A stretch of 64,000 nucleotides of DNA from an uncultured Thermoplasmatales archaeon (GCA_964481275.1 CAYZTD010000002.1:133378-197377); one strand, 5' to 3'; positions 26,704 to 60,571 are shown, counted from the first letter of the stretch. The notes: generated by a model from the letters alone, not told the origin. Made by a program: numbers and translations.

Positions 26704-26830
26704 TTTTTTTTATCTCCAATCTTTTTTTCCATTTTAACTTAAACATAATTGTTTTTATAATAATGTTATAAAAATGCCAAAAGATTTATATATATTATAA
26801 ACTCTTTTTATAATTCTGATGTGATATAAT

Positions 26831-34038: not shown

Positions 34039-35802
34039 ATGAGTTCAAATAAAAATACTAATAATCTTTTTGTAAAAAAGTTGATAGTAAAGAAAATATC
34101 TATATTAACTATAATTTTTTGTTTATTAACAATTTCATTTTTTAACCCTCTTACTATGGCATTACAATCAAAAAGTGAAATTTTAGAAAAAAATAGGGAA
34201 TTATCATTGGGAGATGGAATAGATTTTTCAATTGTTATACATAGGATAGAACAAATTGACGAAATAGATCCTTCTATACATGGTGAAGCTGATTGGACCT
34301 TAAGGATGTATGTAAACAACCAAAAACAAACTTTTGAATGTGAGGGGGATTCAGTTGTAGTTGATAAATGTTTTACTTGGGAAAAAATAATACAAGATGA
34401 CACAGAAGAATTAGATATAAAAATGGAACTAAAAGATAGAGATCCTTGGCCTGATGTTGATGATATAGCAGATATAAGTGCTTATCCTGATCTTTCTTAT
34501 GAAGATAAAGATTATGATGATACAACCGATTTTGAAAATAATAGACCTGCAGTTTTCAAAAGAACATATAATATACTAAATAAAACCTGGAAAGATGAAG
34601 ACGAAGAAAACGATTATTTAAAATGGGATGATGATTCAATTTTAGGGTGGTGGATTACTTCAGGTATTTTTGATGGGAGTACTAATAGAGACGAAAATGA
34701 TGCTCAGATATGGTTTAATATTTCTATAGAAAATAAACCTCCTTATCCACCAGAAAAACCTTCAGGTCCTACAATAGGATGGGAAAATACGGTATATGAA
34801 TTTAGCACAAAATCTCACGATCCAAATGGAGAAAAAATCCAATTTGGGTGGGATTGGGATTTTGATGGTGAAGTTGATGAAATAACTGGATTCTATGAAT
34901 CATGGGAAACCGCCAGTATTTATCATAGTTGGTCTAAAGCAAAAATTTACCATATACGTGTTTTAGCCATAGACTCACATGGTTTAACTAGTGAATGGTC
35001 TGAACCACTTAAAATTGAGATAAACGGCATTAATGGCAAATCAGGAATGGATATTCAAGATTGGAGTATGGGCCATGTTTATTCAATTTATTTTAATCAT
35101 CATGAAACCCAGGAAATAATAAGATCCCTAAGAAGTGGGGGAAATATTGTAGCAGCTGTTGCGACAATAATCACAACAATTGCAGCGATGAGTGGTGTAC
35201 CACTTGATATAAGCGCGGCGACAGCACTTGCTGGAGCTATAATACGTTTAGGAGTAGAAGTTATAAATTTAATGGATCATGGAATGGGAATATATGTCCG
35301 AATATATTTGGTTGAGATTGAAGGAGTGCCTATTGCATATTTTGCATATATATGGTCTCAATCTATGACTGCTAACGAGGGTGAATCTCCTGAAGGAAAT
35401 AAATCACCAGATGTCCCTTCTAAACCAGAATGCGATTCAAACTTTTTCTTAGTAGAAAATGAATATACTTTTACATGCCAAGCTACTGATCCAGATGGAG
35501 ATAAAGTTAATCTTCTTATTAGTTGGGGGGACGAAAATTACACTTGGACTGATTTAGTAAATTCAAATACTGAAATAACTGTTCACCATAAATGGAATAA
35601 AAAAGGATCCTATAATGTTAAAGTAAAAGCATTTGATGAATATGGAAATGAAAGCAGTTGGTCTGAATCTCTAACACTGAAAGTAAGTAAGGCTAAATCA
35701 AAATCAACAATTAATCTTAGTTTAAGAGAAAATTTATTTCTTACAATTTACAAAATATTAAATTTATTTGAGAAAAATTTTACAGATTTAATACCAAAAT
35801 AA
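34039..35802 (+). CDS. secreted PKD-domain protein carrying a shared ~160-aa unknown domain and the shared C-terminal tail; first gene of a three-gene secreted operon
   Basis: Signal/anchor sequence present. Unknown domain (ADWTLRMYVNN...DDIADISAYPD...NRDENDAQIWFNI). PKD domains (PPEKPSGPTIGWENTVYEF...FGWDWDFDG; LISWGDENYTW...VKVKAFDEYG). The tail is NLFLTIYKILNLFEKNFTDLIPK. Confidence 0.8.
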   Translation: MSSNKNTNNLFVKKLIVKKISILTIIFCLLTISFFNPLTMALQSKSEILEKNRELSLGDGIDFSIVIHRIEQIDEIDPSIHGEADWTLRMYVNNQKQTFECEGDSVVVDKCFTWEKIIQDDTEELDIKMELKDRDPWPDVDDIADISAYPDLSYEDKDYDDTTDFENNRPAVFKRTYNILNKTWKDEDEENDYLKWDDDSILGWWITSGIFDGSTNRDENDAQIWFNISIENKPPYPPEKPSGPTIGWENTVYEFSTKSHDPNGEKIQFGWDWDFDGEVDEITGFYESWETASIYHSWSKAKIYHIRVLAIDSHGLTSEWSEPLKIEINGINGKSGMDIQDWSMGHVYSIYFNHHETQEIIRSLRSGGNIVAAVATIITTIAAMSGVPLDISAATALAGAIIRLGVEVINLMDHGMGIYVRIYLVEIEGVPIAYFAYIWSQSMTANEGESPEGNKSPDVPSKPECDSNFFLVENEYTFTCQATDPDGDKVNLLISWGDENYTWTDLVNSNTEITVHHKWNKKGSYNVKVKAFDEYGNESSWSESLTLKVSKAKSKSTINLSLRENLFLTIYKILNLFEKNFTDLIPK

Positions 35803-35833
35803 ATAAAGCGGTGATGAAAGGAGATTAAAAGAT

Positions 35834-37429
35834 ATGAAAACTAATAAATTACTTTTAATAGCAATTTTTTTTATGCTGTTAAACACGTTAATAGCTAATG
35901 CAGGTTATGTACGAATTGGAGGAAATGAAAACAAATTTTTTGATAATTTAAAACTAGAGACTTCTTCTAATTCTAAATGGACTGTCATGGTTTATATGGA
36001 TGCAGATAATGATCTTGAACAATTTGCAATATATAATTTCTTACAGATGTCTGAAATAGGATCAACAGATGAAGTAAATATTGTTGTTCAACTTGATAGG
36101 ATTCCTGGCTATGATAACAGTTATGATGATTGGACCTCGGCTAAACGTTATTACATTCAGAAGAATATGGTACCAAACTCCAACAGTGCTTTAATGGATA
36201 TTGGGGAAGTAGATATGGGGGATTGGAATACATTAAAAGATTTTTACAATTGGGCTGTTTATAATTATCCTGCAGAAAAATATTGTCTCATTCTCTGGGA
36301 TCATGGTTCAGGCTGGAAAATGGGTGGAGAAACGACTTCTCCCTTTAAATGTATCTGTTCAGATTTTACAAATGGTGGAGTTATGTCTCTTCAGGATTTA
36401 AAAAATGGTTTAGATTCGATAACCCAACAAGGTAGAAATCCAATAGATTTAATATGTTTTGATGCTTGTTTAATGCAGATGATTGAAGTAGGATATGAAA
36501 TTAGATATTGTGCAGATTATATGACTGCCTCAGAGGAAGTTGAAACTGCTTATGGTTTAACCTATGATGATGCACTTTATCTATTAACTGAAGATGCTAA
36601 TGTTTCAGCTGATATCCTTGGAAGTTATTTTGTTAATTCTTATAAATATGAAACAATGTCAACAGTAGATCTACAAACTTTTGATTATCTAAAAGATGCG
36701 GTTAATAATTTAGGTAGCCACTTACAAGCTGAGGAATATAAGAGTTATATCAAGAATGCTATAAGGGATGTTGAGACCTATTACGATTATGATTTTGTGG
36801 ATTTATATGATTTTGCAAATCTATTAAAAAATTATATAGATGATTCAAATATCGATTATAAAGCAGATATGGTCATGGCTGGAGTAAATCAAGCTGTGCT
36901 TTATGAAAAACATGATTATAATCATCAAAGATCTCATGGTATCTCAATATATATGCCCTATAGAGAGTATGATTTTGCTTATGGTGATATTAGTTTTGCT
37001 ATGGATTCTTCATGGGATGAGTTTGTTATGTGGTATTTTGGCGGTAGTACAGGTAACGAACCAGAGATTCCTGAGATTGATGGTCCCGGATCTGGTAGTG
37101 TAGGGGTAGAATACGGCTATAGATTTCTTTCATCCGATCCTGATGATGACGATATATATTATTATGTTGAATGGAGTGATGGACAGAGTAGTGGTTTAAT
37201 TGGTCCTTATCCTTCAGGACAAGAAATTGTTTTATATCACAGCTGGGAAAATGAAGGATGGTATTTAGTTAGGGCAAAGGCAGTAGACGAGCATGGCCAT
37301 GAAAGTGATTGGAATCAATTAAATGTTGGAATGCCTAAGAAAAAATGTGTTTTTAAACAAAATACTATTCTGTTTTATTTATTTGAAAAATTTTTTGAAA
37401 AAATAACTGATTTATATTTTGGAGTGTGA
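35834..37429 (+). CDS. secreted clostripain-family (C11) cysteine peptidase with a C-terminal PKD domain and the shared tail
   Basis: Signal peptide present. Catalytic-dyad contexts LILWDHGSGW (His) and LICFDACLMQ (Cys). PKD domain (EIDGPGSGSVGVEYGYRF...YYYVEWSDG...RAKAVDEHG). The tail is NTILFYLFEKFFEKITDLYFGV. Confidence 0.85.
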   Translation: MKTNKLLLIAIFFMLLNTLIANAGYVRIGGNENKFFDNLKLETSSNSKWTVMVYMDADNDLEQFAIYNFLQMSEIGSTDEVNIVVQLDRIPGYDNSYDDWTSAKRYYIQKNMVPNSNSALMDIGEVDMGDWNTLKDFYNWAVYNYPAEKYCLILWDHGSGWKMGGETTSPFKCICSDFTNGGVMSLQDLKNGLDSITQQGRNPIDLICFDACLMQMIEVGYEIRYCADYMTASEEVETAYGLTYDDALYLLTEDANVSADILGSYFVNSYKYETMSTVDLQTFDYLKDAVNNLGSHLQAEEYKSYIKNAIRDVETYYDYDFVDLYDFANLLKNYIDDSNIDYKADMVMAGVNQAVLYEKHDYNHQRSHGISIYMPYREYDFAYGDISFAMDSSWDEFVMWYFGGSTGNEPEIPEIDGPGSGSVGVEYGYRFLSSDPDDDDIYYYVEWSDGQSSGLIGPYPSGQEIVLYHSWENEGWYLVRAKAVDEHGHESDWNQLNVGMPKKKCVFKQNTILFYLFEKFFEKITDLYFGV

Positions 37430-39803
37430 TTTATTGAAACTTGTAAAAATTTTGTTTGTAGTAGTTCTGTTGTTAACATGCAGTTCTTCAGTGGTATCAA
37501 TATATAACAAAAAAAATTTAGAAACAAACGACGTAGGATATGATACTTCAGCTGAATTACCTACATGGAATAAGGGTAACTATTGGAAATATGATATGGA
37601 TTTTGGTTTTATAGTTCGCAATAATGGTTTTAAAGAATTTTCTGTAGTTGCATCAATTAATAATATGAATGCTAGAGTAACAAATACCATTAATTACGAA
37701 GATGATGAAGTTTATGTTTTGTTGCTAGATGGTGATATTTCAGGTAAGATTTTTATTCTTGGCGAGATTGATTTAGCAGATATCGATGCAGACTTAGATG
37801 GAGTTGCATATATTTCTACTTCAACACTTGGCATTAAATATTTTAATTTCGATGTTGAAGGCAAAGTTAATTTGGTTGGTTGGCGGGATATAGATTTTGA
37901 TATGGTTATGAATTTTGTTCCTGAGTTTAACTTCTTTGATTTTCCTATAAATGTAAAAGAGGATCCATGGGAGGTTTATATTGATGAAGCATCTCTTTCT
38001 GCAGATGTTTATGTTGATCTTCCAGGGCCTTTTGATTTTAGAGATAGTTATTCCTCCTCGATGGTTTTTAATGATAACATGTCGATTAATAGAACTGAAA
38101 CTATAGATATTCCTGCAGGTATTTTCGAAACCATTGTCATAGATGGAAGTTGGGGTTATTATTCTAACCTTTATTATTCTGATTGTGTTGGTTATTTGGC
38201 AAAAATTGTAGAAAGATTATATTGGCCAGAAAATGAAGGGCAAATCGAATCGATTTTTAATTTAGAATTAATTGAAACAAATTTTGATGGAGGTAATATT
38301 CCTCCTAATAAACCAGATCGACCCTATGGGCAAACTGATGGTATAGCTGAAGAAGAATATCAATACAGAAGTGAGACTACTGATCCTGAAAATGAAAAAA
38401 TATATTACCTTTTTGATTGGGGTGATGGTACAGATAGTGGATGGGTTGGCCCTTACAATTCGGGGGATCAAGTTATAGTCTCTAATAGATGGTATAATAA
38501 AGGCATTTATTCAGTAATTGTTAAAGCAAAAGACGAAACGGGTATCGAAAGTTTATGGTCTGATCCCTTAATTGTAAAAATAATGGGGGATCCAAATGTA
38601 GATGTATTTGTTTGTAATGTAACAAATTCTGGAATGGATGATATTGATGTGGGATCAGATCCTGAATGGTATTATATGGTTCATGCAGAAAGTAGTGGTT
38701 TAAGTTCTCCTCCTGAATTTAATTATAATACAGATGATGGAACTGAAAATGGGAACTGGATTAGTGAAAAAACTTGGGAGGCCAAAAAGAACCATAGATT
38801 TAAAGGTTACAGTCGTAATGTTACAATAAAGCTAAAGCTTATGGATCATGATGACAGATGGGAAGATCCTATCTATGCAGCAGATGATCTTGCAGATGTA
38901 AGTGGATGTATTGGAGGTGGGGTTGATCAAGATACTCCCAATAAACGTGGAGCTATGTATTATGGGACATATGATTTGGTTGAAAATAAATTAAAAGATT
39001 TTCAGACTGGAGATCCTTTGGAAAATGCAGATTACGTTTACAAAAAAAATGATTATTACATTACAGCTGGAGATCATATACCAGATGAAAGTTATAACGA
39101 GGATGAAAATGATGCTAAGATTTGCTTTAAGCTTTTTAACGATTATGAAAAACCAATTGTGAATGCTAGAATTTTAAATGAACCTGAAAGAATCAGACCA
39201 ATGCAAAATCTTCAATTTGTAGGATCAGTTCAAAATGGTGCTCCTGAGTATAAATGGTCCTGGGATTTTGATGATGGAACAATTTTAAAAGATGATCAAA
39301 AACCAGAACATAGTTTCCAAAATAAAGGAACTTATGATGTAACATTAACATTGACAGATGGATTCAATATAGATAGCATTTTTAAGCTAAATGTAAAAGT
39401 AGAAAACTATGATCCAGTTCTTACAGATGACAAAGTAAAATTTGATGGAAAAGGAGATTTAGACGATACATTTACTTTTTCGGTGAATTACCAAGATTTG
39501 GATGGAGATGATCCTGATGTAAAAACAGTTGTTATAAATGGGAAATCATGGAATCTAAATGGTTTTGGAGCAAATTCTGAATATAGTTTGGCCCTAAAAG
39601 GTAGAGACATTGGTCAGGGTAGTCATGAATTTTATTTTTATTTTGAGGATGGTCATGGTGGTAGTGCACAAACTGAACCTAAAAACTTAGAGGTAAGTAA
39701 AACAAAAGTAAAAACAGATACTTTCTTTCTGAAATTAATGACTTTCTTCAAAGAAAACATTCTTTCTAAAATTGTGAATCTCAATCATATCACATTAGGT
39801 TGA
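37419..39803 (+). CDS. large secreted multi-domain protein (PKD domains, shared ~160-aa unknown domain, shared tail)
   Basis: The ORF overlaps the upstream gene, and the track start is TTG. Signal peptide-like N-terminus. PKD domains (PPNKPDRPYGQTDGIAEEEY...LFDWGDGTDSGW...VKAKDETG; a second near SWDFDDGT). Unknown domain (PEWYYMVHAE...DDLADVSGCIGGG...NEDENDAKICFKLF). The tail is TFFLKLMTFFKENILSKIVNL. Confidence 0.8.
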   Translation: MECDLLKLVKILFVVVLLLTCSSSVVSIYNKKNLETNDVGYDTSAELPTWNKGNYWKYDMDFGFIVRNNGFKEFSVVASINNMNARVTNTINYEDDEVYVLLLDGDISGKIFILGEIDLADIDADLDGVAYISTSTLGIKYFNFDVEGKVNLVGWRDIDFDMVMNFVPEFNFFDFPINVKEDPWEVYIDEASLSADVYVDLPGPFDFRDSYSSSMVFNDNMSINRTETIDIPAGIFETIVIDGSWGYYSNLYYSDCVGYLAKIVERLYWPENEGQIESIFNLELIETNFDGGNIPPNKPDRPYGQTDGIAEEEYQYRSETTDPENEKIYYLFDWGDGTDSGWVGPYNSGDQVIVSNRWYNKGIYSVIVKAKDETGIESLWSDPLIVKIMGDPNVDVFVCNVTNSGMDDIDVGSDPEWYYMVHAESSGLSSPPEFNYNTDDGTENGNWISEKTWEAKKNHRFKGYSRNVTIKLKLMDHDDRWEDPIYAADDLADVSGCIGGGVDQDTPNKRGAMYYGTYDLVENKLKDFQTGDPLENADYVYKKNDYYITAGDHIPDESYNEDENDAKICFKLFNDYEKPIVNARILNEPERIRPMQNLQFVGSVQNGAPEYKWSWDFDDGTILKDDQKPEHSFQNKGTYDVTLTLTDGFNIDSIFKLNVKVENYDPVLTDDKVKFDGKGDLDDTFTFSVNYQDLDGDDPDVKTVVINGKSWNLNGFGANSEYSLALKGRDIGQGSHEFYFYFEDGHGGSAQTEPKNLEVSKTKVKTDTFFLKLMTFFKENILSKIVNLNHITLG

Positions 39804-39948
39804 TCTTAACATTTTTTTCTTTTGTTTACGATTATAGCAAATAGTTTTACCAATAATCATAAAAAAGATAAACATGTTATTGTATTCCAGTATAAAAAAA
39901 CAAAGGAATTTTAAAAAACATGAATCAAAGAATCTTTAAGTGATATAA

Positions 39949-40896
39949 ATGTCGGGCGAGGGCATAGGTTTTGGGAAAGCTATTTTGTTTAATGAACACT
40001 TTGTTGTGTATGGAGTACCTGCAATAGTATCTGCAATTGGAAATTATACTGTTGCAAAAGTAGAATCAAAAGATACACCGGGATGGAAAATAAATGATCA
40101 ACGAAGAGCAACTCCAAACTATAAGGAAGATAAAACAGATCAACAAAAAGACTCAATAAATTATATGATTAAAAGACTAGGTTTAAATCTATCAAAACAG
40201 GGAATAGAAATCACTCTTAATGGTAATCTATATGCAGCAAGTGGGATTGGAGCTAGCGCAGCATCTTGCGTTTCAATTGCTAGAGCACTATCAAAACACT
40301 TTAATCTAAATCTCTCTGATGAAGAGATAAATGAAGTTGGATATGAAGGAGAAAAAGGATATCATGGAACGCCTTCAGGTATAGATAACACAGCATCTAC
40401 ATATGGTGGGCTATTATGGTTTCAAAAAGGTGAAGAAAAAGTAATTGATATGATCGATATACAAAATCCTATAGGTATTGTTATGGGTAACACAGGAAAA
40501 GTAGCAGATACTACAAAAGCTGTTGAAGGTGTAAGACAGAGAAAAGAAAAAAATCCTGAAAAATATCAACAAATTTTTAATCGTGCAGAAAACATAGCCT
40601 ATTTAGCAAAAGATGCATTGCAAGATGAAGATTATCGCGAACTTGGGAAACTTATGGATGAAAACCATAGATTATTGCAACAAATAGAGGTTTCAAGTAG
40701 AGAACTTGATTTTCTTGTAAAACTTGCCCGTAATCAAGGAGCAATTGGTGCAAAACTTACTGGCGGCGGTCTTGGTGGAAATATGATAGCTTTAACACCA
40801 AAAAAAGAAATTCAGGAAAGAGTTGCAACTGCAATTGAAAAAGAAGGATTTCAAACAGTAAGAACAGTTATAGGTGCAAAAAGAATTGGGGAGTAA
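39949..40896 (+). CDS. mvk: mevalonate kinase (GHMP kinase)
   Basis: GHMP motifs LYAASGIGASAASCVSIARAL and KLTGGGLGGNMIAL. 315 aa. It is the first gene of the isoprenoid operon. Confidence 0.85.
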   Translation: MSGEGIGFGKAILFNEHFVVYGVPAIVSAIGNYTVAKVESKDTPGWKINDQRRATPNYKEDKTDQQKDSINYMIKRLGLNLSKQGIEITLNGNLYAASGIGASAASCVSIARALSKHFNLNLSDEEINEVGYEGEKGYHGTPSGIDNTASTYGGLLWFQKGEEKVIDMIDIQNPIGIVMGNTGKVADTTKAVEGVRQRKEKNPEKYQQIFNRAENIAYLAKDALQDEDYRELGKLMDENHRLLQQIEVSSRELDFLVKLARNQGAIGAKLTGGGLGGNMIALTPKKEIQERVATAIEKEGFQTVRTVIGAKRIGE

Positions 40897-40902
40897 TATT
40901 TT

Positions 40903-42213
40903 ATGAATCTTAGAAACTTTCTTTCTAAACTAGAAAAAGAAGGTAAACTTAAAAGAATAAAAAAACAAGTATCAATAGATAAAGAGATAGCAAATATTAT
41001 TTATACTCTAAACGAACAACCAGTTATTTTTGAAAATGTAAAAGATTACAATATTTCTGTATTTGCAGGTATAACATCAAATCGTGATATAATAGCAGAA
41101 GGACTTGAAACAACTAAAGAAAAACTTTTATTTAAATTAGTTGAAGCTCTCTCTAATCCAAAAGAGCCAAAAATAGTAAAAAACGCTCCATGTCAAGAAG
41201 TAATAATGAAAGATGTTGATCTTAAAAAAATACCAATACTTTTTCATCTTGATGGTGATGGTGGAAGATATGGCTCTGCTACAGTTGCAACTATTAAAGA
41301 CCCGGAAACAGGAAGAAATGTATCCTATCATAGAATAATGGAGATTGGTAAAAATAAATTTACAGCACGTCTTATTAAAAAAAGACAGACGAGAACAACC
41401 TATGATAAAATTGATGAGGATTTGGAAATGGCTGTATGTATTGGAAGTTCAGTAGCTGTTATGGTTGCTGCATCTCTTGGTCCTCCCTCAGGTGTTGATG
41501 AGTTTTCTATTGCAAATGCACTTGATAAAACAGATTTAGTAAAATGTGTCACAAAAGATTTAGAAGTACCTGCTGAATCAGAATTTGTAATAGAGGGAAG
41601 GCTTACTAGAGATCTTGATCGCGAAGGACCTTTTGTAGATCTGACTGAAACTCGTGATTTTGAAAGACAAGAACCTGTTTTTGTTGTTGATTGTATTACA
41701 CATAGAAAAGATGCTATGTATCAAGCTCTTATCCCTGGTAGACTTGAACATAAGACACTTATGGGTATGCCAAAGGAACCAACAATATATAGTGAAGTAT
41801 CTAAAGTTGTAGATTGCAAAAATGTCTATGTAACAATGGGTGGCGGTTCTTGGCTTCATGGTATTGTTCAAATAAAAAAGAAACATCCTGATGATGGTAA
41901 AAAAGCAATAGAAGCAGCGTTTAATGGACATAAAAGCATGAAACATGTAATCGTTGTAGATGAGGATGTAGATATCTATAATCCTCTCTCTGTTGAATGG
42001 GCAATTGCCACTAGATTTCAAGGTGATAAAAATCTAGTTATAAACCATAATCAACCTGGTAGCAGTCTTGATCCGTCTGGAAAACATATACCTGGTCAAA
42101 AAACACGTACAACAAAAGTAGGTGTTGATGCAACAATCCCATCTGATGTAAGTAAAGAAAAATATGAAACTGTAACTTATAAAAAAGTTGATTTAGATGA
42201 TTATCTCAGGTAA
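40903..42213 (+). CDS. UbiD-family prFMN-dependent decarboxylase, likely trans-anhydromevalonate-5-phosphate decarboxylase of the archaeal mevalonate pathway
   Basis: 436 aa with the UbiD fold. The gene sits between mvk and the AcnX-type dehydratase genes. Confidence 0.7.
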   Translation: MNLRNFLSKLEKEGKLKRIKKQVSIDKEIANIIYTLNEQPVIFENVKDYNISVFAGITSNRDIIAEGLETTKEKLLFKLVEALSNPKEPKIVKNAPCQEVIMKDVDLKKIPILFHLDGDGGRYGSATVATIKDPETGRNVSYHRIMEIGKNKFTARLIKKRQTRTTYDKIDEDLEMAVCIGSSVAVMVAASLGPPSGVDEFSIANALDKTDLVKCVTKDLEVPAESEFVIEGRLTRDLDREGPFVDLTETRDFERQEPVFVVDCITHRKDAMYQALIPGRLEHKTLMGMPKEPTIYSEVSKVVDCKNVYVTMGGGSWLHGIVQIKKKHPDDGKKAIEAAFNGHKSMKHVIVVDEDVDIYNPLSVEWAIATRFQGDKNLVINHNQPGSSLDPSGKHIPGQKTRTTKVGVDATIPSDVSKEKYETVTYKKVDLDDYLR

Positions 42214-42514
42214 AGGAAAATATAAGGTTTTTTTAGAAAAAAAAGAACTTGATGATGATTTAGTTTTTATTTTAGGTGGCGGTGAAAAATCCCATGTTGG
42301 TGGAGTAGTTATTTGTGAACCAGAAAAAAAACCAACTGTAATAAAGTTAGGTACTCACCATGATTATATTGTTTTAACGCCGATTGCCGAAAGAGCATGT
42401 GAAAAATATAATAAAACTGTAGCTGTAATTGGTGGTATACATATAGATAATGCAACCAAGGAAGAAATCAGTATAATTGTTAAAAATTGTACGGAGTTAT
42501 TAAAATGCATTTAA
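42197..42514 (+). CDS. small conserved hypothetical protein embedded in the mevalonate operon
   Basis: 105-aa ORF overlapping both neighbours in an operon-like arrangement. No recognisable family. Confidence 0.45.
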   Translation: MIISGKGKYKVFLEKKELDDDLVFILGGGEKSHVGGVVICEPEKKPTVIKLGTHHDYIVLTPIAERACEKYNKTVAVIGGIHIDNATKEEISIIVKNCTELLKCI

Positions 42515-43689
42515 CAAGAAAAGAGGAAAAAATCTTAGATGGGGAGAAAGGAGAAGTTGCAGAAAGACTTTTTAGGTTACTTGTAAGACTTGGTGATATA
42601 TATGGTGCAGATAAAATGATTCCTGTAGGATCAGTACAGGTTGCAGGTGTGTCATATAAATCAATTAGTGAACCTGGAACCGCTTTTCTTGAAGATATGG
42701 CAAATAAAGGAGCAAAAGTACAGGTTTTAACCTATTTAAATCCTGCTGGAATGGATCTAGAAAATTGGAAAAGTTTGGGTTTTCCAAAAGATTTTGCTAA
42801 AAATCAACTTAGAATTATGGATGCTTTTAAAAAAATGGGTATAGTTGTAACAAGTACTTGCACACCTTACTTAGCAGGAAATCTTCCTAGGTTTAGAGAA
42901 CATATTGCTTGGTCTGAATCTTCTGCTGTGTCTTTTTCTAATAGTGTTATAGGTGCTAGAACCAACCGTGAGGGAGGCCCTTCTGCACTTGCTGCTGCTA
43001 TATGTGGTGTTACACCAAATTATGGTCTTCATCTCTGGGGAAACCGTCAGCCTGGTTATGAGATTAAAGTAAATGCAGACCTAAATTTTAATTCAGATTT
43101 TGGTGCACTTGGTCATATTGTTGGAAAGATAGTGAAAAATAAAATACCATATTTTTCTGGTATAAAAAATGCCGATATTGATCAACTAAAAAGCCTTGGT
43201 GCTGCAATGGCTGCAAGTGGTGCTGTAGCAATATATCATGTAGAAAACTTAACACCAGAAGCAGATAGTGTCGAAAAGAATAATTTAGAAAAAGTAACTA
43301 TTAATCAAAGTGATATTGATAATGCGTATAAGGAACTTAGCACTGGTAAAGAACCTGATATTGTTATACTTGGTTGTCCTCATGCGTCTCTAAAAGAGAT
43401 ATCTAAATTATCAGATAAAGTTGAAGGTAAAAAACTAAGAAAACCAGTATGGATATGCACATCTCGTATGGTTAAAGAGGCTGCAGAACGTATGGGTTAT
43501 AATGAAATAATTGCAAAAGCAGGTGGATCTGTTGTTGCAGATACATGTATGGTGGTAAGTCCAATTGAAAATATGGGATATAAGACAACTGGTGTAAATT
43601 CTGGTAAAGCTGCTAATTATCTACCTGGTTTTTGTAAACAAAAAGTATGTTTTGCAAATATTGATGATCTTGTGGAGGGTCAACTATGA
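42505..43689 (+). CDS. aconitase X (AcnX) large subunit-type phosphomevalonate dehydratase
   Basis: About 395 aa, AcnX/DUF521-like (TSTCTPYLAGN..., GCPHASLKEI). It is immediately followed by the DUF126-type small subunit. ATG at 42505 is preferred over the TTG at 42487. Confidence 0.7.
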   Translation: MHLTRKEEKILDGEKGEVAERLFRLLVRLGDIYGADKMIPVGSVQVAGVSYKSISEPGTAFLEDMANKGAKVQVLTYLNPAGMDLENWKSLGFPKDFAKNQLRIMDAFKKMGIVVTSTCTPYLAGNLPRFREHIAWSESSAVSFSNSVIGARTNREGGPSALAAAICGVTPNYGLHLWGNRQPGYEIKVNADLNFNSDFGALGHIVGKIVKNKIPYFSGIKNADIDQLKSLGAAMAASGAVAIYHVENLTPEADSVEKNNLEKVTINQSDIDNAYKELSTGKEPDIVILGCPHASLKEISKLSDKVEGKKLRKPVWICTSRMVKEAAERMGYNEIIAKAGGSVVADTCMVVSPIENMGYKTTGVNSGKAANYLPGFCKQKVCFANIDDLVEGQL

Positions 43690-44069
43690 AAGGAAGAATG
43701 ATTTCTCCTGGAAAAGCAAAAGGGAAAGCTCTTGTGTCATCTGAACCAATTGGTTTTTATGGTAATGTAGATATCAACACAGGTAAAGTTATTGAGAAAG
43801 GTCATCCCTTGGAAGGGAAAAAAGTTACAGATAAGATACTTGTTTTTCCATGTGGTAAGGGTTCTACTGTAGGATCTTATGTTATATATGGCCTTAAGAA
43901 AAATAATGTTGCTCCTGCTGGAATTATTAATAAAGAAACAGAAACAATTGTTGCAACAGGTGTTATACTTGCTGGTATTCCATGTGTTGATAAAATAGAT
44001 ATAAGTAAAATAAAAGATGGAGATACAATTGAAATCGATGCAGATAACTCTATAGTTAGTATAAAATAA
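43686..44069 (+). CDS. AcnX small subunit (DUF126)-type phosphomevalonate dehydratase small subunit
   Basis: 127 aa. It overlaps the large-subunit stop, and the motif FPCGKGSTVGSYVIYGL is present. Confidence 0.65.
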   Translation: MKGRMISPGKAKGKALVSSEPIGFYGNVDINTGKVIEKGHPLEGKKVTDKILVFPCGKGSTVGSYVIYGLKKNNVAPAGIINKETETIVATGVILAGIPCVDKIDISKIKDGDTIEIDADNSIVSIK

Positions 44070-44074
44070 TTTTT

Positions 44075-45523
44075 TTAGTGTCTCATATTCCAGATGGTTC
44101 CAACACCTTTTAGATTTATTTCATGGTTTACATTATTATCTTCCCATGTAATTTTACCATTTATATTAGACATACCTATCTTCATTCCTACATGAGCAAA
44201 ACGTTTCCATGTTTGATCTAAAGTGTTTTGTGATTCAATATCTAAGTTTAGTTGTATGTTATTTTCTGAAAGTAAAATTTGAGTTACAGCAGTTTTTGAG
44301 GATATACTAATTTTATTAGGCATATTTAAAAGTAAAAATATTTTTTCTGAATCAGTTATTTTTACTTCTGTTTTTTGTAAAAGAGTTATTGTTTCTCCTT
44401 GATCTGATGTTATAATTATATTAGCAAATGGATTTATTTTGTATGTTTTTGTTGATTTAAACTCTGGAGTAAAATAATAATTGCTATAGTAAATATTCCA
44501 GCCGTTTTCAAGAGTCATGTGGCACCAATCCCATCCTCTTAATAATCCCGATGTTAGAAGACCTGATATCCATGTATGTTCATGATGTCCTATTCCCTTT
44601 ACTTCGGCTTCCATGCCATTAAGTTTTACTTTTCCTTTTACATTACATCCCATAAAAACATAACTTGCGATATTTCCTTTTGATTTATCAATTGGTCTAC
44701 TGCTATATGTCCAAATTGGAGGAGACTCAGCTTCATATGTCAAATCCATTTCTATGTCATCTTCACCTATTTTACCATCTATATGTATGTACCAGTTTGG
44801 AGCTCTACCTTGTACATATGAATCTTCAAATGAGACCTTAAACATTTTTTCAGATGATGAGGTTTGAAGGGTTGGTTCTGAAAGAAAACTATAATCTCCA
44901 AGAAGTGGTCTTTTTCTTTCTTCTATACCGCCGTATTCTTTTCCATCTGGGCTGTGTAGTGTTACAATTAATAAATCTGGTTTTGTGACAAATAAATCTC
45001 CTCTTGCCATATGATTAAAACTTATTGTCGCTGTCCAACCTGCAAGAGCGCTGTTTTTGCTAAAAACAACTGTATAATACCACCATTCTCTATTTATTAA
45101 AATTTGGCTTTTATAATGAGCTCCTTCGTTTTCTGGTGATACAACTCTTTGTTCTGGTAACATTATTGATGTAGGTAGTTTTTTTTCTTTTGTAAAAATC
45201 CATGAGCCATAATCAATACCTGTTTTTATATGAGTTATTGTAATTGTACCATAACAACCTGTTATTTCATCTCCTTCTACAACATTTTTTCCAAGTTTTG
45301 ATGTATCACAATTACCTGTTATTATTAGTTCATCCCATCTAACTTCTTTAGATACATATGTCACCTCAAGTTTTTTGTTTGCATCATCTTGTATAAAATG
45401 AATCTCCGGTGGTTTAGGTGCTCTTGGGTCTTCTATAATTTTTGCTCTAAATAAAACTATTGTGGATACAATTAATAGTATTACTATGATCACGACATCG
45501 ATTTTTTTAAGCTTTTTTTTCAT
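44075..45523 (-). CDS. membrane-anchored extracytoplasmic protein, unknown function (possibly lipocalin/AttH-CrtC-like hydrolase fold)
   Basis: 482 aa with an N-terminal signal-anchor (KIDVVIIVILLIVSTIVLF). Trp-rich. It converges on the mevalonate operon. The family assignment is uncertain. Confidence 0.55.
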   Translation of the reverse strand: MKKKLKKIDVVIIVILLIVSTIVLFRAKIIEDPRAPKPPEIHFIQDDANKKLEVTYVSKEVRWDELIITGNCDTSKLGKNVVEGDEITGCYGTITITHIKTGIDYGSWIFTKEKKLPTSIMLPEQRVVSPENEGAHYKSQILINREWWYYTVVFSKNSALAGWTATISFNHMARGDLFVTKPDLLIVTLHSPDGKEYGGIEERKRPLLGDYSFLSEPTLQTSSSEKMFKVSFEDSYVQGRAPNWYIHIDGKIGEDDIEMDLTYEAESPPIWTYSSRPIDKSKGNIASYVFMGCNVKGKVKLNGMEAEVKGIGHHEHTWISGLLTSGLLRGWDWCHMTLENGWNIYYSNYYFTPEFKSTKTYKINPFANIIITSDQGETITLLQKTEVKITDSEKIFLLLNMPNKISISSKTAVTQILLSENNIQLNLDIESQNTLDQTWKRFAHVGMKIGMSNINGKITWEDNNVNHEINLKGVGTIWNMRH

Positions 45524-46134: not shown

Positions 46135-46710
46135 ATGTTAATAACAGAGTTTTTTATTACAAAAGAACATTGGGGGCAATTTATGGTAGATAGAAAAGAT
46201 ATCCAAAACATTTTTTCAGAAGAATTAGAATGGATAGAAGACAAAGATTTAAGAGAAAAAGTAATAGATGTATGGCATAAAGCATCTCAACTAGGAAAAT
46301 GGGATGATCTAAAAAAGATACCATTTACCCTTCTTTTTGAAGGTTCAGGATTGTTAGTAGATCATACCAAAAGAGTAACTCATCTTGCAAAAGCAGTATA
46401 TGACAATAGAGATGAAAAATTAAACAAAGATTATCTAATAGCAGGAATCCTTTTACATGATGTAGGTAAACTTTTAGAATATGATGAAGTAAATGGAAAA
46501 ATTATAAAAGGAGAATACGGAAAAAAATTTAGACACCCAGTGTCTGGATCTATGCTTGCAAAAAATCTTGCCCTTCCAGATGAAATAGTACATATTATTT
46601 TTGCTCATTCACATGAGGGGGACAAAACAGAAAGATCACCTGAAGCTGTAATAGTACATCACGTCGATTTTATAGATTTTCATATTAAGAAAGGTTTGGT
46701 GAAAAGTTGA
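46135..46710 (+). CDS. HD-domain phosphohydrolase
   Basis: Metal-binding His/Asp motifs LLHDVGK and AHSHEGD. It is the first gene of a six-gene operon. Confidence 0.7.
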   Translation: MLITEFFITKEHWGQFMVDRKDIQNIFSEELEWIEDKDLREKVIDVWHKASQLGKWDDLKKIPFTLLFEGSGLLVDHTKRVTHLAKAVYDNRDEKLNKDYLIAGILLHDVGKLLEYDEVNGKIIKGEYGKKFRHPVSGSMLAKNLALPDEIVHIIFAHSHEGDKTERSPEAVIVHHVDFIDFHIKKGLVKS

Positions 46711-48203
46711 AAGTAACAAACGCTGCAGGAAAAAAAATTGAAACAAAAATTAATAACAGAATTTTTAAACCATATGCTGGAGGAAAAAAACATAGCGGAA
46801 AATCAAAAGTTGAAAAAGATATACCTACTGCTCTTAAAAAAGCAGGTATAACAAATGGTATGACACTTTCTTTTCATCATCAACTGCGTAATGGTGACTT
46901 TGTAATAAACAACACACTAGAATCAGTAAAAGATTTAGGTGTTAAAGATATTAGACTAGCACAAACAGCTCTTTTTGATGTACATGACCCAGTTATAGAT
47001 TTTATAAAAGATGGCATTGTAACAAGTATTGAGGGTAGTGTAAACGGAGCTGTTGGAGATTTTATATCAAAGAATAATCCATTAAAATCACCAGTAATAC
47101 TTCGTTCCCATGGGGGACGCTGGGCTGCAGTAAAATCAGGTGAACTTCATCCAGATATTGCAATAATTGCTGCATCTGGAGCAGATATAAGAGGAAATGC
47201 AACGGGCCTTCTAGGCGAAAGTGCTTTTGGGAATATAGCATATTCACAGGTTGATGCCTGGCATGCAGATAAAGTAATAATTGTTACAGATAATCTAACA
47301 GATTATCCCTGCCCATATAGAGAAATATATGAAGGACTTGTAGACTATGTAGTTAACATAGATAGAATTGGTAATCCAGATAAAATCGTCAGCGGTTCAC
47401 TTAAAATAACTAAAAATCCTATGAAACTTGAAATAGGTAAAAAATGTGTAGATCTTATGGATGCAACAGGGATTATAAAAAATGATATGATTTTCCAGGG
47501 GGGCGCAGGAGGTATATCGCTTGCCGCATTAAAATATCTGGGAGAAAGATTAAAAGAAAAAAATATGGTTGCAGCTTGTTCCACAGGTGGTCTTACAGAA
47601 TTCATAGTTAATATGTACAAATCTGGTGTTTTAAAACAAGTAAACACCTGTCAGTGCTTTGATACAACAGCAGTAGATTTTGTAAGAAAGCATTTAGAAT
47701 CTGCATCAACAATTGGTGAATATTCAGATCATACAATGAAAGGAAGAAATACAGATCGTTTGGATACCGTAGTTCTTGGTGCAACAGAAGTTGATACAGA
47801 TTTTAATGTAAATGTAAACACACATAGTGATGGAAGAATGCTTCATGGTATAGGTGGACACCAAGATGTGTCTTCTACTGCAAATCTAACAATAATTACT
47901 GTTCCGATTTTTAGAGGTAAAAACCCAATTGTTCGTGATGTTGTTACAACTATTACAACCCCTGGAGATATTATAGATGCAATTGTCACTAATGAAGGAA
48001 TAGCTATAAATCCAAAACGAAAAGATTTAATAGATTCATGTAAGGGGAAAATTGATTTAATAGATATAGAAGAACTCAAAAATATGGCATATGATGAAAC
48101 AGGAGGGCCTGTTGAACCAAAATCAGGAGAAGAAATAATTGGTATGACCAAATATTTTGATGGTACAGTACTTGATAACATTTATCAAGTTTTGGAGGAT
48201 TAA
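46707..48203 (+). CDS. citF: citrate lyase alpha-subunit homologue (CitF-type citrate CoA-transferase)
   Basis: Conserved blocks GMTLSFHH, LRSHGGRWAAVKSGEL and DRIGNPDKI align with CitF (for example E. coli GMTVSFHH / IHSHGGR / VQSGEL). 498 aa. Confidence 0.75.
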   Translation: MKVTNAAGKKIETKINNRIFKPYAGGKKHSGKSKVEKDIPTALKKAGITNGMTLSFHHQLRNGDFVINNTLESVKDLGVKDIRLAQTALFDVHDPVIDFIKDGIVTSIEGSVNGAVGDFISKNNPLKSPVILRSHGGRWAAVKSGELHPDIAIIAASGADIRGNATGLLGESAFGNIAYSQVDAWHADKVIIVTDNLTDYPCPYREIYEGLVDYVVNIDRIGNPDKIVSGSLKITKNPMKLEIGKKCVDLMDATGIIKNDMIFQGGAGGISLAALKYLGERLKEKNMVAACSTGGLTEFIVNMYKSGVLKQVNTCQCFDTTAVDFVRKHLESASTIGEYSDHTMKGRNTDRLDTVVLGATEVDTDFNVNVNTHSDGRMLHGIGGHQDVSSTANLTIITVPIFRGKNPIVRDVVTTITTPGDIIDAIVTNEGIAINPKRKDLIDSCKGKIDLIDIEELKNMAYDETGGPVEPKSGEEIIGMTKYFDGTVLDNIYQVLED

Positions 48204-48206
48204 AAA

Positions 48207-48977
48207 ATGAATTGGAAAACAAAAATTACAAAAGTAGAGCCAAATCATCTTATAACACGTGGTTATAGGCAGGAAGATCTTATTGGAAATATACCTTTTT
48301 CACATGTAGTATATCTTTTATTAAAAGGAGAGCTTCCAACAAAAGAACATGGAAAAATGGTGGATGCGATACTTACAGCATGTATGGACCATGGTGTTAC
48401 ACCACCTTCGTCAATGGCATCAAGAATTGTAGCATCAGGAGAAGTACCTCTTCCTACTGCAGTTGCTGCAGGAATACTTTCTATTGGAGATTCACATGGA
48501 GGAGCAATAGAAAAAGGTGCAAAGTTTTTACAAGATGGAATTAAAAAAATGAAAGATGAAAATATGGATATTCAAAAAATAGCAGAAACTTTAGTTTCAG
48601 AATCAAGAGAAAAAAAGAGGCGCATACTTGGTTTTGGACACAGAGTTCATACCTCTGATCCTCGTACTAAAAGATTATTCAAACTTTCTGATGAGTTAAA
48701 TATCTCTGGTGATCATATAGATTTATCAAAAAAAATTGAAAAAGAACTTGAAACAAATATTGGGAAAAAACTTCCAATAAATGTTGATGGTGCAATCGCA
48801 GCAATTATTTCTGATATGAATTTTGATTGGAGGCTTGGAAAAGCTTTCTTTTTACTTGGAAGAGTAGCAGGTATTACTGCTCATGTATATGAAGAACAAA
48901 CTGAATTTAAACCAATGAGAAAAATTTTTGATACAGATGTAGAATATGATGGAGAAAAAGAAAAAGATTTACCATAA
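48207..48977 (+). CDS. citrate-synthase-family short protein, citryl-CoA lyase (CCL)-like
   Basis: 256 aa with the citrate synthase catalytic signature GFGHRVHTSDPR. The length matches CCL rather than full-length citrate synthase. Confidence 0.7.
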   Translation: MNWKTKITKVEPNHLITRGYRQEDLIGNIPFSHVVYLLLKGELPTKEHGKMVDAILTACMDHGVTPPSSMASRIVASGEVPLPTAVAAGILSIGDSHGGAIEKGAKFLQDGIKKMKDENMDIQKIAETLVSESREKKRRILGFGHRVHTSDPRTKRLFKLSDELNISGDHIDLSKKIEKELETNIGKKLPINVDGAIAAIISDMNFDWRLGKAFFLLGRVAGITAHVYEEQTEFKPMRKIFDTDVEYDGEKEKDLP

Positions 48978-48996
48978 CATTTTGAGGTGAATTATT

Positions 48997-50751
48997 TTGG
49001 GAAAAACAATTATTCAAAAAATTTTTGAGAGTCATTCAAAGCAAGTTGCAAATGTTGGAGATATAATTGATATAGATATAGATGTTAGAGTAGCTCGTGA
49101 TTTTGGTGGAGCAAACGTTGTAAAAAACCTTGAAGAAAACAATCTATCAATTGATGATCCAAAAAAAACTTTTTTTACATTTGACTGTAATCCTGGAGGA
49201 TGTGATCAGAAATATGCAGCAAATCAACATATCTGCAGGCAGTTTGCAAGAAAAAATGGAATAAAAGTTTTTGATATAGACCAAGGTATTGGAACACATA
49301 TTGTAATAGATAAGGATATTGTAAAACCAGGTGGGACTATAGTTTCAACAGATTCACATGCAAATATACTTGGTGCTTATGGAGCATTTGGCCAGGGTAT
49401 GGGTGATAAAGATATGGCTCATGCATGGGCATATGGTAAAATATGGTTCAAGGTTCCACCTACAATAAAAATAGTTTTAAAGGGAATGCCTGGAAAAAAT
49501 GCTACACCTAAAGATGTCGTTTTGAAAATGTTACAAGATCTTGGTGCTAATGGCCTACTTGGTTATGCCTCTGAAATATATGGAACATATGTTGATCAGT
49601 TGTCTATCGATGGGAGAATCACTATTGCATCTATGGCAACTGAGATGGGCGGAATAATACTTCTATTTCCAAACAAAGATGGGTTTTCTGCTGATCCTGA
49701 TTGTACATATGAAAAAACAATAGAAGTAGATATATCTGGTATTGAACCAATGATCTCTAAACCTGGTCACCCTGAAGATGTAGTCAAAGTATCTAGTTTA
49801 AAAGACGTAAAAGTTGATTCTGGGATTATTGCATCTTGTACTAATGGTAGAATGGATGACATGAGAGCTGCTGCAAGAATACTTAAAGGTAAAAAAATAG
49901 CTCCCGGGAGGGTTTTAAAGATAGTTCCATCTACTAATAAGATATGGAAACAATGCCTCGATGAAGGGCTTATTAAAATCTTTAAAGATGCAGGAGCACT
50001 TGTTGGGAGTGCAGGCTGTGCTAGTTGTGCTGCAGGGCAAATCGGTCAAACAGGTAAAGAAGAAGTAGAAGTTTCAACTGGTAACAGAAATTATGTTGGA
50101 AAACAAGGCAAAGGTGATGTTTACCTGACTAGCCCTGAAACGGTTGCTGCAAGTCTAGTAGCTGGATATATTACAAAAAAAGATAGTATTCCTAAAAATC
50201 CTATTGAACTACAAATAAAAAAAGAAAAAAACTTTGAAAGTAAAAAAGAAGAAACTAATAAAGAATCTCCTTTAAAACTTGAGGGCCGTGCATGGGTTAT
50301 TAAAAAAGATAATATTGATACAGATATGATATATCACAATAGATATCTATCTATCACTGATATTTCAGAGATGGGGCAATACGCATTTGATAATCTAAAA
50401 GGCTATGAAGACTTTGCTAAAAAGGCAAAACCTGGAGACATTGTTGTTACTGGTAAAAACTTTGGCTGTGGAAGTAGCAGACAGCAGGCAGTTGATTGCT
50501 TCAAAAGCCTTGGAATAAGCTTGATTATTGCTGAATCCTTTGGTTCGATTTATGAAAGAAACGCAATCAATAATGCAATGCCTATAATGATTGCAGAAGA
50601 TATTACTGATAAGATAGATGATAAGGATATAATTACTGTTGATTTAAAAAATGGTAAAATTTTTGATAAATCCAAAAATAAAGAAATCAAAGGCAAACCT
50701 TTTTCAAAATCTCAACTTGAAATCTATAAACGTGGTGGTCTTTTAGCATAA
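48997..50751 (+). CDS. fused large+small subunit aconitase-family dehydratase (LeuC-LeuD type)
   Basis: The LeuC-like N-terminal part has DSHANILGAY, ASCTNGRMDD and GCASCAAGQIG. The LeuD-like C-terminal part has GKNFGCGSSRQQA. 584 aa. Confidence 0.75.
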   Translation: MGKTIIQKIFESHSKQVANVGDIIDIDIDVRVARDFGGANVVKNLEENNLSIDDPKKTFFTFDCNPGGCDQKYAANQHICRQFARKNGIKVFDIDQGIGTHIVIDKDIVKPGGTIVSTDSHANILGAYGAFGQGMGDKDMAHAWAYGKIWFKVPPTIKIVLKGMPGKNATPKDVVLKMLQDLGANGLLGYASEIYGTYVDQLSIDGRITIASMATEMGGIILLFPNKDGFSADPDCTYEKTIEVDISGIEPMISKPGHPEDVVKVSSLKDVKVDSGIIASCTNGRMDDMRAAARILKGKKIAPGRVLKIVPSTNKIWKQCLDEGLIKIFKDAGALVGSAGCASCAAGQIGQTGKEEVEVSTGNRNYVGKQGKGDVYLTSPETVAASLVAGYITKKDSIPKNPIELQIKKEKNFESKKEETNKESPLKLEGRAWVIKKDNIDTDMIYHNRYLSITDISEMGQYAFDNLKGYEDFAKKAKPGDIVVTGKNFGCGSSRQQAVDCFKSLGISLIIAESFGSIYERNAINNAMPIMIAEDITDKIDDKDIITVDLKNGKIFDKSKNKEIKGKPFSKSQLEIYKRGGLLA

Positions 50752-59908: not shown

Positions 59909-60571
59909 ATGAATGCGAAAAAAATAGATTTAGATGCTATAGATATAAAAGAAAAAGCATATCTAATTGGTATCATAGTTGGAGATGGGTATTTATATCA
60001 TGATAATTGGAGGCATTACAAGGTTAATATTTACTTAAATCCAAATAAAGATAAAGACGTAGCTAATTTTGTTCTATTTTTACTAAAGAAAGTAGGTCTT
60101 AATCCATATGAAATGCATCATCATGGATGTTTAGTTATAAGATTTAATTCAAAATCATTTTTTAATTTTATTGAAAAAGAATTAAAAAGAATTAAAAACA
60201 TCGATATTAAAAATAAGGATTTTATGATTGGTTTTATATCAGGATTTATAGATTCTGATGGCTATGTATCTTATGGAGATATTGTTATTTCAAATAAAAA
60301 AAAAGAATTGATAGAAAAGACAAATAATTTTTGTAAAAATTTGAAAATATATTCTAAAATTTGGAGTCAACATAATCTATTCCGTGGTAAAATTTTTGAT
60401 ATATGGAGATTGAGAATAGGTACTAGTTTTAAGTATGAGGAACATTATTCCCAAAAATTAAATCGGATATATGGCGGGGCGCTGCCCATCATAGCGAGTA
60501 TTAATTCAGAAATGGATGATACCTATAAGGGTGGGGTAGCCAGGAAATCCCGACGGGCCCATAACCCGTAG
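59909..60571 (+). CDS. LAGLIDADG-family homing endonuclease (double-motif); 3' end reads into the tRNA-Met 5' exon
   Basis: Two LAGLIDADG-type motifs are present (LIGIIVGDGYL and IGFISGFIDSDGYV). The true stop is uncertain because the reading frame continues through the tRNA gene. Confidence 0.7.
   Translation: MNAKKIDLDAIDIKEKAYLIGIIVGDGYLYHDNWRHYKVNIYLNPNKDKDVANFVLFLLKKVGLNPYEMHHHGCLVIRFNSKSFFNFIEKELKRIKNIDIKNKDFMIGFISGFIDSDGYVSYGDIVISNKKKELIEKTNNFCKNLKIYSKIWSQHNLFRGKIFDIWRLRIGTSFKYEEHYSQKLNRIYGGALPIIASINSEMDDTYKGGVARKSRRAHNP

Follow-up and report, generated by a model that had tools for sequence, protein, structure and literature searches.

To our knowledge, the prenylated flavin chaperone LpdD has so far been studied only with bacterial aromatic-acid decarboxylases. 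The protein of Lactobacillus plantarum is dimeric, binds prenylated flavin mononucleotide (prFMN) in its reduced state only, supports the activation of apo-Fdc1 and of Escherichia coli UbiD and pulls down with UbiD, and its conserved surface patch contains a Mn2+ site formed by H35, H61 and D63 (Gahloth et al. 2024, PMC10865409). In the same study LpdD was described as "only rarely present alongside UbiD" (PMC10865409). A second group of related systems is formed by the archaeal mevalonate genes of Methanosarcina mazei and Aeropyrum pernix, which encode a UbiD-type anhydromevalonate phosphate decarboxylase (AMPD) and a two-subunit AcnX-type phosphomevalonate dehydratase (PMDh). Here we analyze a stretch of 64,000 nucleotides from an uncultured Thermoplasmatales archaeon (GCA_964481275.1, CAYZTD010000002.1:133378-197377; hereafter, the window), in which an open reading frame (ORF) of 105 codons lies between the genes for a UbiD-family decarboxylase and for the large and the small subunit of an AcnX protein (AcnX-L and AcnX-S), downstream of a gene for mevalonate kinase (MVK). 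An earlier note on this DNA had interpreted the cluster as an archaeal mevalonate operon with an embedded small gene of no recognisable family. We find that this gene encodes a predicted LpdD-family protein and follows the UbiD gene in all loci collected from 80 species.

Assignment of the small protein to the LpdD family

The 105-residue protein matches the Pfam model PF21758 with 87 bits (E 1e-24, cut-off 27), and its residues 6-103 cover model positions 2-108 of 115. For L. plantarum LpdD, of which the PDB alignment yields a part of the sequence, the same model gives 88.9 bits. This family is named 'PAC_bac' in the library copy used here and 'LpdD_chaperone' in the precomputed table of the collection; some of its bacterial members are titled 'prenylated flavin chaperone LpdD' by NCBI and UniRef, and no NCBIfam model matched the protein. 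A profile built from 24 members of the clade of the window protein matches the LpdD sequence from PDB at E 8e-6. The single-chain AlphaFold2 (AF2) model has a pLDDT of 96.1. In a Foldseek comparison of this model with PDB, the six best matches are LpdD chains (8p4w/8pzh/8po5; TM 0.85-0.88, root-mean-square deviation 1.9-2.3 Å, E 3e-7), and the next-best fold, that of PAC3/PAC4/Pba3-4, reaches TM 0.45-0.57. The LpdD fold, similar to that of PAC3/4, is a beta-sandwich with helices on its flanks. The family is recognisable after all, and crystal structures and a published function are available for it. The suggestion of the earlier note that the protein might handle prFMN agrees with this homology. 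On sequence and predicted fold, we regard the protein as a clear member of the LpdD family.

The residues H33, H54 and D56 align with the Mn2+ ligands H35, H61 and D63 of LpdD and are invariant in all 24 clade members. Among 136 members of the family, seven positions (G28, G29, H33, G35, H54, G80, and H82) are conserved in at least 96% of proteins; H33 and H54 are found in 96-98%, G80 in 98%, and H82 in 99%, and the conservation of D84 and D56 is 74% and 65%, respectively. The whole PF21758 family comprises 939 clusters at 50% identity (E <=1e-3) among 1.84 billion representative sequences.

Public names of the archaeal orthologues are inconsistent and include 'hypothetical protein', 'metal-dependent hydrolase (beta-lactamase superfamily II)', 'ribosomal protein L24', and 'gallate decarboxylase subunit D' (records P0004, P0020, P0041, P0060, and the P0099 cluster). 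The annotation of these proteins can now be corrected to the LpdD family.

Predicted enzymes of the mevalonate pathway encoded in the cluster

The kinase encoded by the first gene obtains 250 bits on the MVK model TIGR00549 (cut-off 163), contains both the N- and C-terminal GHMP kinase domains, and stays far under the cut-offs of the models for phosphomevalonate kinase and diphosphomevalonate decarboxylase.

AcnX-L matches PF04412 at E 1e-156. Its similarity to the AcnX type II protein of Thermococcus kodakarensis (TkAcnX, PDB 7cnr) amounts to 373 bits, against 191-196 bits for 7cnp, 7cnq, and 7d2r, which are type-I cis-3-hydroxy-L-proline dehydratases; its score of 275 bits on NF051439, the model for the latter enzyme, is under the cut-off of 700 bits. 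In the numbering from the TTG start, C125, C297, and C354 align with the ligands C110, C283, and C342 of TkAcnX, the [4Fe-4S] ligand positions of the PMDh and AcnX types being known from previous work (PMC8184944, PMC10040528). The sequence after C354 reads C-M-V, and the second cysteine of the type-I C-x-C is missing. Because of the gap in bit scores, the three ligand cysteines, and the missing type-I C-x-C, we assign AcnX-L to the phosphomevalonate dehydratase type. AcnX-S matches PF01989 (E 8e-33) and passes the cut-off of NF003046 (175.6 vs 163 bits). The AcnX pair is thereby a predicted PMDh, and the interpretation of the cluster in the earlier note as the AcnX/UbiD-type route is upheld.

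In the UbiD-family protein, the UbiD_N, UbiD, and UbiD_C domains were all matched, and the score on TIGR00148 is 360 bits. Its motif R144...E241-GPFV-D246 corresponds to R-Xn-E-X4-(E/D), the catalytic motif of the UbiD family (PMC5818171), and is accompanied by N139. The protein fits no ubiquinone, menaquinone, or aromatic-acid equivalog among the curated models, as it stays under the cut-offs of NF008175 (147 vs 788), TIGR03701 (171 vs 496), VdcC (206 vs 650), and the phenylphosphate carboxylase models (97-107 vs 469-565); as far as these models go, this agrees with the expectation that it is not of the ubiquinone type. The best match in PDB is 6h6x/6h6v with 262 bits, compared with 128 bits for E. 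coli UbiD, and the PDB entries searched with this protein contained no AMPD structure. Its best 120 homologues are close relatives; those with names are called 'UbiD family decarboxylase', and one is called '2,5-furandicarboxylate decarboxylase 1'. Because the MVK-UbiD-PMDh synteny is conserved in the 80 species described below and in additional metagenome loci, the UbiD-family protein is best read as a putative AMPD.

The assignment of the cluster as an operon for the lower archaeal (AcnX/UbiD-type) mevalonate pathway is supported by these identities, and the scores of the family assignments greatly exceed what chance would give. No UbiX, isopentenyl phosphate kinase, classical phosphomevalonate kinase, or diphosphomevalonate decarboxylase was found within the 64-kb window. 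The scan of about 50 ORFs of at least 110 amino acids gave no match to PF02441 (UbiX) or PF00696 (isopentenyl phosphate kinase), and four UbiX queries, taken from UbiX-like genes beside bacterial LpdD homologues, gave no tblastn match in the window, in line with the earlier note, which had reported neither ubiX nor ipk.

Conservation of the gene order

To describe the context of the LpdD-like gene, one genome per species was scanned, and 80 loci were obtained. They belong mostly to Thermoplasmatota; the other labels are Theionarchaea, Methanomassiliicoccales, Methanomicrobia, Conexivisphaerales, Nitrososphaerota, Iainarchaeum, and 'Thermococci'. The UbiD gene is directly upstream of the LpdD-like gene in 80/80 loci, and the 17-nt overlap between the two is identical in 78/80. 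MVK is encoded upstream of UbiD in 71 loci, and the remaining 9 end at a contig edge. The downstream side is more variable: the AcnX-L gene starts within 30 nt of the LpdD-like gene in 58 of 76 loci, and in 18 loci inserted DNA of 0.2-3 kb intervenes, in most cases an antisense TruD gene. In three further cases, AcnX is absent downstream and the contig runs on with unrelated genes, MVK-UbiD-LpdD being intact. Embedding of the small gene between UbiD and AcnX genes is therefore constant, in these loci, on the UbiD side only. The mean identity to the window proteins is 62% for the LpdD-like protein and 78% for UbiD and AcnX, which indicates that the LpdD-like gene is evolving faster than the genes of the enzymes and yet retains the key residues.

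The antisense TruD pseudouridine synthase gene is located exactly between the LpdD-like and AcnX-L genes in a sub-clade (L036, L042, L050, L061, L063, L064, L066, L067, L069, L072, L079, L086, and others), and it splits the operon there without disturbing the UbiD-LpdD overlap. TruD was identified by PF01142 in L086, and the other loci share the same antisense ORF of about 390 amino acids. When ubiX and ipk were sought in the 0.2-3 kb inserts, antisense TruD, peptidases, an acetyltransferase-like ORF, and others were found instead. The same five-gene operon is present in L065 and L074 (Conexivisphaerales/Nitrososphaerota labels) and in L078 (Iainarchaeum); their UbiD proteins are 67-70% identical to that of the window, and the identity of AcnX-L is 69% in L065 and L074 and 49% in L078. 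This suggests either transfer of the whole operon between phyla or mis-binned contigs.

For a sample unselected for LpdD, PMDh-L of T. kodakarensis was rebuilt from the PDB alignment and used as a query, yielding 80 metagenome loci anchored on AcnX. UbiD and AcnX-L occur together in 40 of them. An LpdD-family ORF is located between the two in 7 of these 40, and the UbiD proteins of these loci are 67-77% identical to that of the window. The other 33 operons, with UbiD 40-61% identical, lack an LpdD-family gene, and in 31 of them the distance from the UbiD stop to the AcnX-L start is -26 to +14 nt, which leaves no space for such a gene. About 20 Thermococcales-like loci encode AcnX-L and AcnX-S with neither UbiD nor MVK nearby and without an LpdD-family ORF. 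As 33/40 UbiD-AcnX operons do without it, the gene cannot be a general requirement. The LpdD-like gene is a clade-specific insertion in a widespread MVK-AMPD-PMDh operon, and a single acquisition would agree with the sharp separation of the two groups by UbiD identity.

Association with ubiX

Using tblastn and UbiX-like queries from beside bacterial LpdD homologues, we detected ubiX inside the operon in 7/80 loci. It directly follows AcnX-S in six of them (L040, L041, L053, L070, L080, and L073) and lies between MVK and UbiD in L078; ubiX is also found in the operon of the metagenome loci L129 and L166. The genomic context was inspected for seven distant family members, of which five adjoin UbiD and/or UbiX: one belongs to the same mevalonate operon, two to UbiD-LpdD-UbiX-type clusters, and two are paired with UbiX only. 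Neither gene is near the remaining two.

Two loci without LpdD carry ubiX beside UbiD. The gene order in L135 (5156-5686) is MVK-UbiX-UbiD-AcnXL-AcnXS, and L140 (2171-4830) has a radical-SAM-like ORF (CxxxCxxC) between UbiD and AcnX-L. HD-domain phosphohydrolases flank bacterial LpdD-UbiX pairs (L088, 4811-6950; L090, 4407-6135), and an HD-domain protein is encoded between UbiD and AcnX-L in the archaeal metagenome locus L124 (851-1447). These HD proteins might hint at a step that supplies dimethylallyl phosphate for prFMN synthesis, but they are mutually dissimilar, the HD protein of the window included, and we make no such claim.

Predicted function and alternative explanations

From the gene identities, the fold, the conserved ligands, the conserved synteny, and the co-occurrence with ubiX, we infer binding of reduced prFMN (prFMNH2) by the LpdD-like protein, its transfer to AMPD, and the activity of AMPD. 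The proposed pathway would proceed as follows: (i) MVK would phosphorylate mevalonate, (ii) the two-subunit AcnX enzyme would dehydrate mevalonate 5-phosphate to trans-anhydromevalonate 5-phosphate, and (iii) AMPD, with prFMN as the cofactor, would decarboxylate the latter to isopentenyl phosphate. UbiX, presumably encoded elsewhere in the genome, would supply the oxygen-labile prFMNH2. The LpdD-like protein may hold this cofactor at the conserved surface patch with the His-His-Asp metal site, possibly via the phosphate, then dock on apo-AMPD and pass the cofactor on, thereby increasing the amount of active holo-enzyme. The out-of-frame overlap with the UbiD stop would couple its synthesis to that of its client. 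Thus stated, the 105-residue protein is probably a prFMNH2-binding chaperone dedicated to AMPD in the mevalonate operon.

An obligate structural subunit, forming a stable AMPD-LpdD hetero-oligomer as VdcD does for VdcC, is rather unlikely, although such a role is compatible with that of a chaperone and the two are not exclusive. Matched production of both proteins is suggested by the near-invariant overlap with UbiD, LpdD pulls down with E. coli UbiD, and the VdcCD precedent is cited in the same work (PMC10865409). However, the fold and the ligand patch are those of LpdD, which acts sub-stoichiometrically and independently of a specific UbiD; moreover, the related AMPD operons with more distant UbiD proteins have no such gene, and many family members adjoin UbiX alone or stand alone. 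A stronger version, in which the LpdD-like protein is an obligatory stoichiometric partner of AMPD enabling oxygen-independent loading or maturation of prFMN, we hold to be distinctly unlikely. If it were true, all membrane-lipid synthesis in these archaea would depend on this protein; an autocatalytic loop would be closed, as dimethylallyl phosphate, from which prFMN is made, is itself produced by the pathway served by AMPD, and priming of the pathway would rely on a high-affinity prFMN carrier. It is very unlikely that the protein is a catalytic maturase that would generate the active iminium form, without oxygen, from prFMNH2 or from the prFMN radical: LpdD binds the reduced form only, the 105 residues of the window protein show no motif for a redox cofactor, and no evidence that LpdD acts catalytically was found in earlier work (PMC13040415). 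Such a role would fit the near-invariant residues beyond the metal ligands (H82 and G80, with D84 conserved to a lower degree), the presumed anaerobic life of the hosts, which are uncultured Thermoplasmatota and would have to oxidise prFMNH2 without oxygen, and the existence of a separate bacterial maturase, PhdC (PMC13040415).

The earlier note had also offered a dehydratase-assembly factor, and a factor for Fe-S insertion or a third subunit in the AcnX-type PMDh may be considered as well. The stop of the ORF overlaps the AcnX-L start in the window, AcnX-L is close downstream in most loci, and PMDh needs an oxygen-labile [4Fe-4S] cluster (PMC10040528). Nevertheless, the small gene tracks UbiD and not AcnX: it is fixed to UbiD, while its connection with AcnX is interrupted in many genomes, by inserts in 18 loci and by absence of AcnX downstream of an intact MVK-UbiD-LpdD in three. 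A dehydratase-assembly role is therefore disfavoured. In addition, members of the family in other contexts occur with UbiD or UbiX but in no case with AcnX, the Thermococcales-like AcnX loci lack an LpdD-family ORF, and the crystallised PMDh from T. kodakarensis is a heterodimer made up of the large and small AcnX subunits, for which no third protein has been described; taken together, a role in PMDh is highly improbable. A homologue of proteasome-assembly chaperones that is in the operon by chance is scarcely credible: the older Pfam text does read 'Bacterial proteasome assembling chaperone-like protein', and there is a distant fold likeness to PAC3/PAC4 and Pba3/4, but the TM values are far lower than those to LpdD, the UbiD synteny extends over 80 species, and the family is now named LpdD_chaperone.

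Several points weigh against the role of a chaperone dedicated to AMPD. The prFMN maturation known so far requires an oxidant, and the hosts probably live anaerobically. The protein is only about 19-20% identical to LpdD, and the biochemical knowledge of the family comes from bacterial members. The putative AMPD assignment is carried by synteny with the MVK and PMDh genes. Since ubiX is absent from the window, the supply of prFMN in this organism is presumed, and most UbiD-AcnX operons of the AcnX-anchored sample do without an LpdD-family gene. Published data point in the same direction: LpdD contributes little or nothing to gallate decarboxylation in L. plantarum (PMC10865409), and the M. mazei pathway, whose AMPD, PMDh-L, and PMDh-S genes are consecutive with no LpdD between them, functions in E. 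coli with AMPD and UbiX alone (PMC12547664).

Layout of the operon and neighbouring genes

The five-gene cluster was confirmed, the ORFs, coordinates, and plus strand being as given before, and its genes are closely packed on a single strand (Table 1). The claim that stops and starts overlap throughout holds for three junctions: 17 nt in a different frame between UbiD and the 105-codon ORF, 10 nt between this ORF and AcnX-L if the latter starts at the ATG at 42505 (28 nt with the TTG at 42487), and 4 nt between AcnX-L and AcnX-S. It fails for mvk and UbiD, which are separated by a 6-nt spacer. The ATG at 42505 (MHLTRKEE...) corresponds in the alignment to residue 1 of T. kodakarensis AcnX, and gene callers place the start there in relatives as well. 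A convergent gene ends at 44075, 5 nt past the AcnX-S stop. A scan for bacterial-type promoters and terminators gave counts at the level of shuffled sequence, and these consensus types may not apply to an archaeon. The window contains the archaeal markers TFIIB, fibrillarin, and the archaeal ThrRS editing domain, its G+C content is about 30%, and its closest relatives are uncultured Thermoplasmatota metagenome-assembled genomes (MAGs).

Table 1. Features of the predicted mevalonate operon (positions in the window)
Feature	Position	Strand	Remarks
Intergenic stretch upstream of mvk, AT-rich	39804-39948	+	145 nt; A/T-rich TATA-like stretches; presumed operon promoter
mvk	39949-40896	+	315 aa
UbiD-family decarboxylase gene	40903-42213	+	436 aa
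LpdD-family ORF, putative prFMNH2-binding chaperone	42197-42514	+	105 aa; ATG start
AcnX type II large subunit (putative PMDh-L)	42505-43689	+	394 aa from ATG; 400 aa from alternative TTG at 42487
AcnX swivel-domain small subunit (DUF126, putative PMDh-S)	43686-44069	+	127 aa

The convergent gene (44075-45523, minus strand) encodes a 482-aa protein with only a sub-threshold match to the CrtC lipocalin domain of the carotenoid hydratase family; the protein may be isoprenoid-related, and a 482-aa gene is at the equivalent position in L084. Four tightly packed genes on the plus strand (46135-50751) encode an HD-domain protein, CitF, a citrate-synthase-like protein, and aconitase, the HD gene running at its end into the start of the gene after it. 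CitF is of the citrate lyase alpha subunit type (CoA-transferase), and the citrate-synthase-like protein of 256 aa matches only the C-terminal part of citrate synthase and is citryl-CoA-lyase-like. These genes may form a module for ATP-independent citrate cleavage or synthesis. The HD, CitF, and citrate-synthase-like genes recur downstream of the operon in L084, and an HD homologue is found within a few kb of the operon in about 28 of the 80 related loci.

The sole tRNA gene of the window, tRNA-Met(CAT), is at 60530-60599 (plus strand), and its 5' part is overlapped by 42 nt by a 220-aa ORF resembling LAGLIDADG-type homing endonucleases (59909-60571, plus strand). Directly upstream of the operon, numerous large secreted PKD-domain proteins and clostripain (C11) and papain (C1) peptidases are encoded at 63-791, 4343-5647, 25333-28687, and 34039-39803, which suggests a lifestyle of protein degradation outside the cell. 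Also encoded are a DDE_Tnp_1 transposase that bears a SWIM zinc finger (9087-10286, plus strand) and a polyprenyl synthetase (12271-13227, plus strand; about 27 kb upstream of the operon).

Comparison with described systems

The pathway and the enzyme families are already known, as are the LpdD family and its mechanism (Gahloth et al. 2024); the mevalonate context of LpdD appears to be undescribed. In the literature searched, no publication linked LpdD to the mevalonate pathway, and the LpdD study mentions neither archaea nor mevalonate (PMC10865409); likewise, nothing on AMPD maturation was found among the papers naming both anhydromevalonate and prFMN. In at least 80 species, an LpdD-family gene is tied by the 17-nt overlap to a mevalonate UbiD-type decarboxylase gene, and sister operons are without it. 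This provides a natural comparison, with and without the gene, for the question of why some UbiD enzymes need a cofactor chaperone, and touches the question of prFMN loading and maturation in strict anaerobes. The LpdD-like protein could also be added, as a test, when the ATP-saving archaeal mevalonate pathway is engineered in E. coli.

The eukaryotic PAC3/PAC4 proteins (Pba3/Pba4) share with the window protein an alpha/beta sandwich of the same general build (TM about 0.5) and differ in having no conserved His/Asp patch context, another genomic context, and no sequence-level functional relationship. VdcD and BsdD of the hydroxyarylic acid decarboxylases are likewise small proteins encoded beside a UbiD-family enzyme. 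The fold and family of VdcD are unrelated to LpdD. The maturases PhdC and YclD are accessory proteins as well, which make UbiD enzymes more active and have their genes in UbiD/UbiX operons, but they have an HpaC-like flavin reductase fold, unrelated to that of LpdD, and a catalytic oxidative role (PMC13040415).

The mevalonate genes of M. mazei (MM_1526 for AMPD, MM_1525/1524 for PMDh, MM_1762 for MVK, and MM_1871 for UbiX) and of A. pernix (APE_2087.1/APE_2089 for PMDh and APE_2078 for AMPD) have in common with the window the enzyme set of MVK, a UbiD-type decarboxylase, and a two-subunit AcnX, in the order AMPD-PMDh-L-PMDh-S. Unlike in the window, MVK of M. mazei is encoded elsewhere and nothing separates AMPD from PMDh-L (PMC12547664).

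The closest counterpart of the small protein is L. plantarum LpdD (lp_0272; PDB 8p4w, 8pzh, 8pzo, 8po5), with which it shares the Pfam family at an equal score, the fold, the His-His-Asp metal site, the GG-x3-H-x-G and G-I-H motifs, and the genomic association with UbiD and UbiX. The window protein is archaeal, shorter (105 vs roughly 130 aa), about 20% identical, and without the 5-residue loop insert before the second His, and its gene is joined by an overlap to the UbiD gene and not co-transcribed with ubiX. The clients are different, too: LpdD of L. plantarum accompanies an aromatic-acid catabolic enzyme, whereas the predicted client in the window is an aliphatic-acid decarboxylase of an essential biosynthesis.

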